DNA of 63,958 nt, counting the filler, from Octopus bimaculoides (taxonomy: Eukaryota), in NCBI RefSeq assembly GCF_001194135.2. It is 8 parts of 8 records of this genome, joined end to end, with 100 filler letters (N's around TTAATTAATTAA, not from the genome) between each part and the next. Parts side by side here need not be neighbours in the genome. Positions count along the whole stretch, not along the records: positions 40,797 to 54,987 come from NC_068982.1; positions 55,088 to 61,083 come from NC_069010.1; 6 more parts are not named here. One strand, 5' to 3'. The position numbers and the translations under genes were made by a program. A model generated the notes under the pieces. The model made no database searches and was not told where the DNA came from. It worked only from the letters and a program-made list of their open reading frames with translations. Positions 48,640-60,833 of this stretch are shown piece after piece; the first letter of the stretch is position 1; each line of letters starts with the position of its first letter.

Positions 48640-48813
48640 GAAGAATTTGAGAATCTTTTCAAAGCATTTGATGACTCTGTGGATGTTCACTATTTGAAAT
48701 GTTTCCGACGAGCCCGTGTTGTGTTTAGTTCTTCACTGCTTGCCGCCACAGCCAGAATACATTTACACGAAACAGAACTCGGAGGCAAAACGCTTAAATG
48801 TTATTTTGCACAA
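48640..48813 (+). CDS. RCAN: Internal exon of RCAN/calcipressin (regulator of calcineurin), RRM domain
   Basis: Acceptor ttgattccag|, donor CAA|gtgagt; 174 nt, phase 0-0. Encodes EEFENLFKAFDDSVDVHYLKCFRRARVVFSSSLLAATARIHLHETELGGKTLKCYFAQ, matching the RCAN RRM pattern (F..LF..FD, KSFRR.R..F, ARI.LH.T, K.YFAQ) and the 58-codon exon recalled for vertebrate RCANs. Confidence 0.93.
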
Positions 48814-51674
48814 GTGAGTACAAAGAATAACAATAATTTTTATTCTTATTTTCACTCTTCTGTTTTTTCTTCTTCATTTCTGCTCTCACTGTATATATAT
48901 GTATGTGTGTGTGTGTGTGTGTGTGTGTGAGTATATATATATATTAAAAATGAAAAAAAAACTTTTAGTATTTGTTCTGCCCAAGTTGCATAGATACTCT
49001 CACTTTCACCATCAGAAATTCTCATTGAACCAATAATTAATCTGTTAGAAACCAACAACAGACAAGGCTGTTGAGTCAAAATTGCACGATATTAAAATTA
49101 TTTGAGTAAAAAAGCATTTAAACTCTTGTTCGTGTGTGTGTAATCATGAATGTATATATGTTTGTGTATACATAAATGTGAGTATCGTTATCATCATCAT
49201 CATCATTTAATGTCCGTTTTCCATACTGGCATGGGTTAGATGGTTCGACTGGGAGTCTGCACCAGGCCCCAATCTGATCTGGCAGTGTTTCTACAGCTGG
49301 ATGCCCTTCCTAATGCCAACCACTCCGAGAGTGTAGTGGTTGCTTTTTACGTGCCACTGGAGGAGCTGGCATCGACCACAATCGGATGGTGCTTTTTATG
49401 TGCCACCGGCACGGAAGCCGGTCATATTTAAAATCTTCCTGTAAGAAAGTCGTTGGTTTCTAACAAAGATACGAAGCTCTGTCATTGGAAGGTAGACAAC
49501 AAAAACAGTGTGACATTTGAAACTGGAGAAAAGCCTTGCATGGTGGATCACTCTCTGATTGGCCATTACAACCAACCTTCCAAATAGACATACATACATA
49601 CATAAAACCCTTAAATCTACTCATGGCTTCAAGACTTCCATTATGTGATTTTTTATATTTTGAGAGAGGAGGGCAGGTGGTCAGTTTGAACATAATATTT
49701 GAGCAAGACAAAAGACCCCCTTCGGTCTTGATTGACCGTGGGATTACACCTAGAAAGTTACCCTCCAAGGCACAAGTCCAGGCAAGGTTGTTTTGTGGAA
49801 GGCCGGCAGCCGCCCATGCATACCAACCTCTCCTCCCATACCACTGATGTTATCCAAAGGAAAGGCTAAGGGGCCGATACAACTTGGCACCAGTGATGTC
49901 GCAACTCATTTCTACAGATGAATGAACTGGAGCAACGTGAAATAAAGTGTCTTGCTCAAGAACACAACACACAGCCCGGTCCGGGATTCGAACTTACAAC
50001 CTCATGATTGTAAGCTCGACACTCTAACCACTGAGCCATGTGCCTTTACATTGAGCAAGATATGGCAGGATAAAATAGTAAACGGCTAGTTAATCTGACA
50101 AAATAAATCTATCCTGGCTGATAATAAATATAATGCCAAACAAATCCAATCTTAAAAATAAATATCCACGAAAAGATAATAATAATAAAGAAAGACAACT
50201 AATAAATTCAAAATCATTTCATTTTCATGTGCTGGTTCCAAATAAAAAGTAGAAAGGACACATGCCGTTGCCATGTAGAAAGCACCTCAACTACTGGTAC
50301 CACATAAAAAGGAGTGGTGCTAGCACCATGTAAAAAGCACCTAGTACACTTTGTAAAGAGGTTGATGTTAGGAAGGGCACCCAGCTGTAGAAGCCATACT
50401 AGAACAGACAATCGGGACCTGGTGCAGCCCTCCACCCTTGCCAGCTCCTGTCAAACCATCCAACCTATGCCAGCATGGAAAACTGATATTAAATGACGAT
50501 GATGATGATGATGGTGTTTTATGATATTTTTTCTTCTGGACATTTTTCTAAAAGAACATTTCTTCGGTTTTTTTTGAAACGTGATTTCAAAGTTAAATTA
50601 TTTCTTTAAACAAAACATTAGACAAGTTAGTGGTTTGTTTAGTTTAACATTAACTTCTCATCTTAAAACTTCTACAGTTTGCCAAATGGTTTTCTTGTTA
50701 TTTCCTTGTTTCTATTCCGTCAACCACCTACTCCACTTTTTTCTTCCTTTTCATCAATTTCTGAGGAGTTTTTTTGGTGTTTTTTTCTTTTATGGGTTTT
50801 AATGGCAATAAAACTCTTAAACTTTAAATTTAAAAGATGTATTATTTTCTGGCTCATGTAACTTCTCATCAATTTCTTAATTCCAATTGAAAACATTTCC
50901 AGTTTTAGTTTTTTATTTTTATTTATAACTGTTGAAGTGCATGTATGTTAGTGTATGTGATGTGTGTTAGTGTGTGTGTATGTGCTGTTGTTAATGGTGT
51001 TTTCTCTTAGATGAATGGTGAATGGTTAAGGTGTTGGACTGGGGATTGCAAGATCATGGTTTCAGTTCCCAGATCAGGCAATGTGTTATGCTCTTGACCA
51101 AAACACTTCATTTCACTTGGGCCCAATTAACTCAGTTTAAATGAGTAACCCTGCAACAGACTGTTGCCCTCTTCAAGAGCAATGCTGTGATCATGGTGAG
51201 CTGGCAGAAACATTAGCACACTGAGCAAAATGCTTAGCAGTATTTCATCTGTCTTTATGTTGTGAGTTCAAATTCCACCAAGGTCAACTTTGCCTTTCAT
51301 CCTTTCAGGGTCGATAAATTAAGTATCAGCTGCATACTGGGGTCGATCTAATCGACTAGCTCTCTCCCCCAAAATTTCGGGCCTTGTGCCTAGAGTGGAA
51401 AAGAAGGCTGTGATCTTGGTCACTTATATGCCATGGAAACCAAATAACCAACCCTAGGACTCAAAACCTCACTGATCGACTTTGAATGAGCATCATCATC
51501 ATTTAACATCCATCTTCCATGCTGGGATGGGTTGGATGGTTTGAGGAGAGGTGGCAAGTCAGAAGCTTGCATCAGGCTCTATTGTTTGATTTGACAAGGG
51601 ATCTATGGCCAGGTGCCTTTCTTAATGCCAACAGCTTTGTGGAGTGTACTGGATGCTTTTTATGTGTTATCAGT

Positions 51675-51955
51675 GAGAAAGGTTGCTCAATAAAGAGAGT
51701 GAATGGGAGAAAGAGAGTCTGCTGAATGTCGATCCAACAGAGGGATCAGCTATCCGAATTGACAGTACCTTGGTAGATAAAGCAATTAAGGGTATGAAGA
51801 CAGGAAAAGCCCCCCAGCCCATCAGGAATCACTGCAGAGATGCTCAAAATATCTGGCGGTGTCGGCTATAGCTTAGACACCCGTATAGTCAACCAGGTGA
51901 TACATGGAGTCATACCCAATGACTGGTATAGCAGCACCATAGTCAACTGCTACAT
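51675..51955 (+). mobile_element. RTE-like LINE fragment (start of RT region)
   Basis: VDKAIKGMKTGKAP, frameshift, then SGITAEMLKISGGVGYSL...VIPNDWYSSTIVNCY. Confidence 0.85.
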
Positions 51956-52730
51956 TAAAAGCACATCCGGTGGCATGTAAAAAGCACCATCTGATTGTGG
52001 TCGATGCCAGCTTCTCTGGCCCCTGTTTCGGTGGCACGTAAAAAGCACCCACTACACTCTCAGAGTGGTTGGTGTTAGGAAGGGTATCTAGTTGTAGAAA
52101 CACTGCCAGATCAGACTGGAGCCTGGTGCAGCTTCCTGGCTTCCCAGACCCCAGTCGAACCGTCCAACCCATGCCAGTATGAAAAACGGACGTTAAACGA
52201 TGATGATGATGATGATGGTAATGATTATAATTATTGTAATCTTTCAAATTAGCTAAGTTCTAAAAAGCAGCATCATATGCTAATTTGGTGGTTAACAGTA
52301 GTTTTAAGTGAAAATTCTGATTACTCTACTTGTGTCTGTGAGGGAAATGTTTACTTAGTAGAGAAAGGACTCCTTCAGATACAGGACCAGAAACTTCTAA
52401 ATTATAAGCAGGATGCTATTCAGTAATACTTTCAGATATATTTCGATTATTGCTTAATCTGTTGGGTGGTATGTAAACTATTTCATCATTTAAAATGTTC
52501 TTCTTCAGGGCATATTTTATTTTTAAACATAGTCTTTATAACAAACCAGTACTTAATATTTTCAAGATGGCTACACTCCTCAATGTCAAGTTATTTTAGA
52601 ATTTTCTCCTTCTAAACATACAGTGGATGTTAGTGGTGCTGCAATTTAATTTTATTTTCAAGTCATTGGTGAATTTCTTTGTATACACACATGAACACAT
52701 ACCTATTATTTATATATCTATCTGCCCCCC

Positions 52731-52772
<42 letters not shown>

Positions 52773-59315: not shown

Positions 59316-59356
<41 letters not shown>

Positions 59357-59649
59357 CATTATTATTATTATTATCATCATGTAAGGCAGCAAGCTGGCAG
59401 AATCCTTAGCACACCAGGCGAAATGCTTAGTGGTATTTTGTCTGTCTTTGCGTTCTGAATTCAAATTCTGTCAATGTCAACTTTGCCTTTCATCCTTTGA
59501 GCACTGGGGGTCGATGTAATCGACTTACCCCCTTCCCCAAATTTACTGGCATAAAAGCGACGGTAGTGGTGATGTGGTGGTGTGCTCCGTTAATATTCTT
59601 TGATGCGGAAAAAGCAGTTGATTAAAAACCAAAATTTCCTCAATTCCAG

Positions 59650-59696
59650 GTGCAAAGACATTTCAACAATTACTCGAAGAAGAATTACAGAAAGAG
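59650..59696 (+). CDS. CENPJ: SAS-4/CPAP exon, PN2-3 helix
   Basis: Acceptor tcctcaattccag|, donor GAG|gtacgt; 47 nt, phase 1-0. (R)AKTFQQLLEEELQKE resembles CPAP KQTFEDYLEEQIQLEE. Confidence 0.87.
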
Positions 59697-60593
59697 GTAC
59701 GTGGAATTTTTTTATTCTTTGCAATTGGGTGCCTATTGTGGTGGCAGCTTAAAAAATTCATTGTCATCATCATTATTGAGTGAGAGAGCAGCACACACCA
59801 TCAAATTGACACTGCGGTACAAATATACGAAGCCCACTATACCCATCATGATTATCCATCTGACAAGAGTACATCAGGCACATGCATCACAACCATATGG
59901 GCACACCATGGTGATCTCATATCAATACAAACAGTGCATGACCTTGCAGGTAGAACTCAGAATTTTCTTTACGTCATGTTGCCCATCTTGCTCAAAAGGT
60001 TCCCGAATAAGGGTTGTTTCAGGATGTTGAATGAAACATGCATATTTCTGGGAGCGAATTATCCAAACCCCCAAAGAATTCCTCTCAACACATGGTTATG
60101 ATGCTGCTCCCCAACTACTCCTGCTCATGATCAGAGATGCACATATCGTCAGCTACTAAGTGACATGACTGGTTAAGGTCAAGCAAACCGACAAGTAAAT
60201 CTCTGATATTAAGCAGAGTATTTTTTATAGCCCATCTTTTACACTGAGATGAAACATGTACATGATAACACTTGTGTGTTTACGTCCCCCGTAACTTAGC
60301 GGTTCGGCAAAAGAGACAGATAGAATAAGTACTAGGCTTACAAAGAATAAGTCCTAGGGTCGATTTGCTCGACTAAAAGGCGGTGCTCCAGCATGGCCGC
60401 AGTCAAATGACTGAAACAAGTAAAAGAGTAAAGAGTAAAGAGTAGATAACCACAACCAAATATTTATTTGTGTGCTACCATTTTACATCAGATGTGTATA
60501 CCTATATCATAACAACAACAATAATAATAATAATAATAATAATAGAAATAATAATGTTAATAAATAACATCATCTGATTGTATCTCTTTACAG

Positions 60594-60833
60594 AAGCCCT
60601 TCCCTTCATCTCTCCAAGCCAACCCAAAGAGGAATTTCCTGCGGCGTGGGGAAGGCATTGCACGGTTCAATCCACCGCCCAACGAGAAATCAATTCAGAG
60701 ACATGTACAGAGAAGTAACAATCGATCAAAGTCCAGTTCTACTCCACACCGCACTTTGCCATTATTGCTAGAAGACCAAACTGTTCCTAAAAGACCTATC
60801 TCTCAGCCAGTCCTGTCTCGGAATAAATCAAAG
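60594..60833 (+). CDS. CENPJ: SAS-4/CPAP exon with tubulin-binding FLKRGEG-type motif
   Basis: Acceptor tatctctttacag|, donor AAG|gtaacc; 240 nt, phase 0-0. KPFPSSLQANPKRNFLRRGEGIARFNPPP... matches CPAP PKQPFLKRGEGLARF. Confidence 0.9.

Follow-up and report, generated by a model that had tools for sequence, protein, structure and literature searches.

RCAN and CENPJ exons lying side by side in a stretch of the Octopus bimaculoides genome probably belong to two separate genes

In a stretch of 63,958 bases from the octopus Octopus bimaculoides (hereafter the window, meaning this whole stretch of DNA), one exon of an RCAN (calcipressin) gene, which encodes the RRM-like part of the protein, is followed on the same strand by four exons of CENPJ (also CPAP or SAS-4), and the locus raises the question of whether the two groups of exons belong to one gene. 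A preliminary description of the window, made from the sequence, offered three readings of this arrangement: a chimeric RRM-SAS-4 protein, one locus with alternative 3' branches, or missing sequence at the unsized join between the two blocks. If true, a calcipressin-CPAP fusion would link calcium signalling to centriole length in a new way, and our full-text search of the literature found no description of an RCAN (calcipressin) fusion with CENPJ (CPAP). Our analysis suggests that RCAN and CENPJ are, with good probability, two separate ordinary genes, because in RNA the exon joined to the 5' side of CENPJ exon 55347 is another exon of CENPJ; fragments of the two would have been set adjacent by scaffolding, or much sequence would have been lost in the gap between them. 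The RCAN-CENPJ fusion, as proposed, is not a real feature.

Transcript evidence at the CENPJ acceptor

RNA was aligned to positions 55281-55720 of the window, which hold only the first of the four CENPJ exons, for 4 of 24 runs. In the index of these runs 18 of the 24 rows contain the exon, none of them recorded as RNA and their kind guessed or unknown, and the evidence used here comes from the alignment of the 4 runs. These were two raw RNA-seq runs (X23 and X24), of each of which about 6 in 100 was read, and two contig sets (X10 and X5) that were taken by guess to be RNA. The depth of RNA is confined to the exon, and the contigs of X10 and X5 depart from the genome sequence at both of its splice sites. 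One identical 5' loose end (agreement 1.0) is seen at the acceptor in 13 reads of X23, 5 reads of X24 and one contig each of X10 and X5. Read in frame, this loose end gives APSAPCLHS followed by K, the codon of which is made complete by two letters in common with the acceptor, and it matches the exon that precedes the counterpart of the 55347 exon in the CENPJ gene of O. vulgaris, PAVPSATSLHSK. Of 30 letters compared, 10 agree with the end of the RCAN exon (CYFAQ) and 9 with the intron, and a search of the window that allowed up to 3 mismatches gave no match to the loose end. Because the loose ends match the O. vulgaris CENPJ exon and not the end of the RCAN exon, we conclude that the upstream exon spliced to exon 55347 is CENPJ's own, and that this exon is absent from the window. 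On the 3' side, the loose ends of 7 and 10 reads and of 2 contigs belong to the exon at 57162, and the splice chain can thus be followed across both 55347 and 55655. Contig X5 reaches 1022 nucleotides 5' of the exon, a length into which, by arithmetic, about 843 nucleotides of coding sequence for the CENPJ N-terminus would fit.

Reads joining 48813 to 55347, the RNA check that the preliminary description had put forward, were looked for from the acceptor side, and no transcript joins RCAN to CENPJ among the 18 listed acceptor-crossing reads or the 2 contigs. Zero of 18 sets a 95% upper bound of about 15% on the chimeric share, rising to about 28% should the two unlisted reads be chimeric, and this bound is loose because mates may derive from one molecule. 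The chimeric RRM-SAS-4 protein is not supported, given these reads and contigs and the existence in the species of a CENPJ N-terminus with a coiled-coil-like stretch. One locus with alternative 3' branches is not supported as an account of the main product, while a minor product of this kind is compatible with the data, which are acceptor reads only. The third reading, in which the unsized join hides or misplaces sequence, is supported, the exon that precedes 55347 in RNA being absent from the window.

Inside the same CENPJ exon there is a donor-like site at 55533, at which no loose ends are listed in the 4 runs aligned.

Identity of the exons and absence of their neighbors

The RCAN exon (coordinates of all features are given in Table 1) has 174 nucleotides, is preceded by ag, ends in CAA before the donor gtgagt, has phase 0 at both ends and reads EEFENLF...CYFAQ. 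It is matched by the Pfam Calcipressin family (PF04847) with an E value of 1.4e-12 and 48.2 bits against a cut-off of 23.5, over profile positions 12-70 of 186. The exon is 100% identical to the O. bimaculoides protein A0A0L8GZK7 and 84-88% identical to full-length cephalopod RCANs, and its borders are the same in an alignment with homologous RCANs. The four CENPJ exons are consecutive and every one is bounded by AG and GT; joined, they encode 216 amino acids that are letter-identical to the RefSeq model XP_014783334.1 (P0016) from residue 250. The first of them is 100% identical to XP_052834026 and 88% identical to O. vulgaris CAI9744175, and the PN2-3 tubulin-binding region is present, with a match to PF25779 (CPAP tubulin-binding) both in the last exon and in P0016 (E 5.8e-11 for the latter). 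The RCAN and CENPJ queries taken from the window both match O. bimaculoides proteins at 100%.

The observation from which the fusion was proposed, an RCAN RRM exon directly upstream of and in phase with CENPJ exons, was reproduced, and coordinates, splice sites, phases and Pfam matches all agree with it. The RCAN donor at 48813 and the CENPJ acceptor at 55347 are in-frame compatible (phase 0 to phase 0). However, the match is weak evidence because phase 0, as computed from exon lengths, occurs at 6 of 7 intron boundaries in the five exons, and for this reason we discarded it as support for a chimera.

We searched the 63,958 bases for the exons that should flank these two groups by motif scan, 6-mer scan, tblastn and short-query tblastn, the last of which recovered a 14-amino-acid exon at E 6e-12 as a positive control, and found no further exon of either gene: searches for RCAN exon 1, for the 3' half of RCAN and for the N-terminus of CENPJ all gave nothing. 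By tblastn, the first 37 amino acids of XP_052834026 and the N-termini of XP_014783334 and A0A0L8GZK7 were not found in the window; the FLISPP signature of RCAN was not found there by motif scan or short-query tblastn; and the RCAN 3' halves of P0002 and P0018, used as queries, gave no window match better than E 0.5. No CpG island was seen in the block at 40797-54987, the observed-to-expected CpG ratio (CpG o/e) of which is 0.33. The preliminary description had likewise reported, for the sequenced bases between the two groups, no FLISPP exon, no CENPJ start exon or N-terminal coiled coil and no CpG-rich promoter.

CENPJ and RCAN in O. bimaculoides and its relatives

The models of O. bimaculoides contain a normal CENPJ N-terminus. 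Two of them, P0015 and P0016, share an N-terminus of 249 amino acids, which gives a close alignment to O. vulgaris P0017 and contains a glutamine-rich stretch, coiled-coil-like by inspection, although P0015 (XP_052834110.1), whose first 249 residues are identical to those of P0016, is titled 'GATA zinc finger domain-containing protein 10-like'. The N-terminus is without an RRM in both of these models and in P0005, P0017 and P0036 from O. vulgaris and Argonauta, and no match to Calcipressin at E 0.01 was found in 14 CENPJ-family proteins (P0004, P0005, P0015, P0016, P0017 and P0036-P0044). Searches for longer proteins, which are weak tests of low sensitivity, gave no fused RCAN-CENPJ homologue among their 3 and 2 matches.

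The four consecutive exons are common to the CENPJ/CPAP/SAS-4 family (PF25779 and PF07202; O. vulgaris CAI9744175.1 and CAI9744176.1, Argonauta hians GAB1608454.1), and the comparison with O. vulgaris shows, besides the similarity of the first exon, an intact tubulin-binding region and, by RNA, the same upstream exon. Unlike known CENPJ genes, the window is without N-terminal and C-terminal exons, and the O. bimaculoides models are split or end early: the C-terminal TCP10 domain is present in the orthologs P0005, P0017 and P0036 and absent from P0004 and P0016, which end before this region. An exon of about 36 amino acids that is seen in RNA is absent from both P0004 and P0016, which suggests that it is also missing from the assembly behind P0016. 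According to the excerpt available of PMC4884677, PN2-3 of CPAP is a tubulin-binding region comprising LID and SAC, and the CENPJ product is predicted to cap centriolar microtubules through PN2-3.

Two further observations concern CENPJ. P0004 begins with 37 amino acids that are absent from the window and do not resemble the O. vulgaris protein. In the CENPJ intron, a 129-bp tandem repeat of 4.2 copies occupies 55733-56280, and near-identical sequence flanks a gap of 10 N at 56083-56092; the repeat is possibly an assembly duplication.

The RCAN exon has the conserved RRM-like sequence and the CY(F/I)AQ end of its family (PF04847; A. hians calcipressin-3-like GAB1598614.1 and Sepia pharaonis RCAN2 CAE1259506.1). 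In alignment, the full RCANs of Argonauta, Sepia, two further assemblies and bivalves run on from the RCAN exon into an SP-motif half. Unlike these family members, the window has the RCAN exon only, the SP-motif and C-terminal exons being missing, and the database model ends in a false exon derived from a repeat. This last exon, at 49918, was considered as the true end of RCAN and discarded, since the sequence at 49918-50007 has a second copy at 31409-31601 (88.6% over 193 nucleotides); it gave no alignment to the RCAN 3' half. The database models of O. bimaculoides are therefore wrong for both genes, with RCAN ending in a repeat and CENPJ split and without its 36-amino-acid exon. In the portion of PMC3896409 available, FLISPP is given as the RCAN signature and the PxIxIT and LxxP calcineurin-docking motifs are placed in the last two exons; on the strength of the same source, the RCAN product is predicted to regulate calcineurin. 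As to the signature itself, the RCANs P0002, P0003, P0007 and P0018 (Argonauta, Sepia and two close relatives) carry HLISPP, and P0019, P0021 and P0022 (bivalves or close to them) carry the FLISPP of the family; for O. bimaculoides itself no such signature was found.

Assembly structure and composition

The window contains 9,116 N and 30 stretches of called bases with an N50 of 2.8 kb, together with seven identical 100-base elements, one of which separates the RCAN block from the CENPJ block; its fixed form suggests that the element is an unsized assembly linker. A text search limited to titles found none on assembly linkers among the matches listed for its 12 letters. With microsatellites masked, the four blocks to the left of 40697 have a CpG o/e of 0.76-0.95 and the two blocks on the right one of 0.78-1.0; between them, the RCAN block has 0.33 and the CENPJ block 0.43. 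Gene-body methylation would deplete CpG. The composition changes at the outer linkers, although both genes must run past them. In O. bimaculoides, methylation lies on the bodies of genes with high expression, and because patterns that spare the 5' third of a gene are also described (both in the available part of PMC9476566), the step at the left linker is suggestive of a misjoin and not proof of one. Earlier assemblies of the species had numerous gaps and fragmented gene annotations (PMC10925132), and Hi-C data were added to a shotgun assembly (PMC9068888), as far as the excerpts of these two sources go.

Weighing the explanations

If the two genes are separate, as we favor, the RCAN block (14 kb) and the CENPJ block (6 kb) would not be neighbors, or not so spaced, on the real chromosome, and scaffolding of the fragmented draft would have placed them side by side. 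False gene fusions from scaffold joins occur in draft genomes. The present case is like them in that two housekeeping-type genes flank an unsized microsatellite gap with the neighboring exons of both missing, and it differs in that the misjoin itself is one that we infer. The RCAN exon would splice to ordinary SP-motif exons elsewhere, and the two products would presumably work as is usual in their families, RCAN in the regulation of calcineurin and CENPJ in the capping of tubulin at the centriole.

Several points weigh against this explanation. A full-length RCAN of the genus Octopus was not found (among 21 matches from 50 candidates and 3 from 29), and because of this the RCAN 3' exons of O. 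bimaculoides have to be deduced from relatives. CpG o/e is without a step at the 54988 linker (0.33 against 0.43), which suits true contiguity or two gene bodies joined alike. The partly aligned reads number 21 and 16 and the loose-end table holds 20 and 15, which leaves one read in each raw run unexplained. Inter-chromosomal translocations occur in octopods, as the accessible text of bioRxiv 10.1101/2025.05.16.652989 states, and the comparison with Argonauta given below is that of one species.

An alternative is that the order is real and that the RCAN exon lies, in the same orientation, within one of the 5' introns of CENPJ, the genes being nested or interleaved, with each splicing past the other and no fusion protein being made. 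Both blocks are on one strand, both are CpG-poor and no CpG step marks the join, and the missing CENPJ 5' exons must be upstream of 55347 and the missing RCAN 3' exons downstream of 48813, none of them being in the window. However, the junction is formed by an unsized linker, and the CpG steps at 40697 and 61084, as well as the apparent exon of a third gene at 15470, would need to sit inside the introns of both genes. In A. hians, moreover, RCAN (GAB1598614.1) is on a record of 57,250,254 bases and CENPJ (GAB1608454.1, with 44% identity to O. vulgaris across 1772 aligned positions) is on another of 48,430,988 bases, so that linkage of the two genes was not seen in this better-assembled relative, whose chromosome-level genome is called strikingly similar to that of O. 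vulgaris (again in the part available of bioRxiv 10.1101/2025.05.16.652989). For O. vulgaris, a position of RCAN was looked for and not found. We regard nesting as unlikely.

Normal genes with minor read-through, in which the RCAN donor is joined to the CENPJ acceptor and an in-frame RRM-CPAP protein is made in some tissue, would be permitted by the compatible phases, by the small share of each raw run that was read and by the two partly aligned reads that are not accounted for. Against it stand the absence of any such junction among the 18 listed acceptor reads, within the loose bound given above, and the need for the genomic order to be real, and we hold it to be very improbable. Slightly less probable again is its fullest form, in which the RCAN exon is truly inside a CENPJ 5' intron and a minor splice gives an RRM-capped CPAP in some tissues that would link calcineurin control to centriole growth. 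That the RCAN exon replaced the CENPJ N-terminus and that an RRM-SAS-4 fusion is the main product, for which adjacency, strand and phase are the only arguments, is refuted by the use of CENPJ's own exon in every listed junction read and contig, opposed also by the CENPJ N-terminus present in O. bimaculoides, by the 14 CENPJ-family proteins without a Calcipressin match and, weakly, by the searches for longer proteins, and has practically no probability left.

Two separate genes remain the explanation that we prefer, and in-phase neighbors across the 100-base linkers of this draft are not to be trusted.

Table 1. Features of the RCAN and CENPJ blocks and their borders, in window positions
Feature	Position	Strand	Evidence
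RCAN (calcipressin) internal coding exon, RRM-like part, phase 0/0	48640..48813	+	Pfam PF04847, homologues, alignment
Repeat-derived false last exon of model A0A0L8GZK7 (P0001), not RCAN sequence	49918..50007	+	tblastn, translation
CENPJ/CPAP internal exon (DDIISS...QPVS)	55347..55655	+	RNA depth confined to exon; in 4 of 4 runs, loose ends at each border
CENPJ exon (VNSSNLDDERPITSEIG), PF25779 region begins	57162..57213	+	3' RNA loose ends match exon start; tblastn
CENPJ exon (AKTFQQLLEEELQKE)	59650..59696	+	tblastn, translation
CENPJ exon with KRNFLRRGEGIARF tubulin-binding motif	60594..60833	+	Pfam PF25779, E 4.6e-6
Putative linker, left edge of RCAN block	40697..40796	.	CpG o/e 0.84 to 0.33 across
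CA-rich tandem array closing RCAN block	54515..54987	.	TRF score up to 391
Putative unsized linker (N44, 12 nucleotides, N44) between RCAN and CENPJ blocks, CA repeats on both sides	54988..55087	.	One of 7 identical linkers
Putative linker, right edge of CENPJ block	61084..61183	.	CpG o/e 0.43 to 0.78 across

Other features of the window

The apparent last coding exon of a third gene lies at 15470-15730 (+), with an acceptor, 86 amino acids that include a run of His, and a stop; it has no Pfam match, and its best Atlas scores, 0.84 (Optomotor-blind) and 0.80 (T-box), serve as a lead only. On the other strand, 26288-26500 (-) is a segment that we take to resemble a Tc1/mariner transposase, with no fitting Pfam match. 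The segment at 28676-28823 (-) is probably a Tc1/mariner transposase fragment, judging from its matches to HTH_23 (E 1.3e-4) and HTH_SB (E 9e-4), both of which are under the cut-offs.

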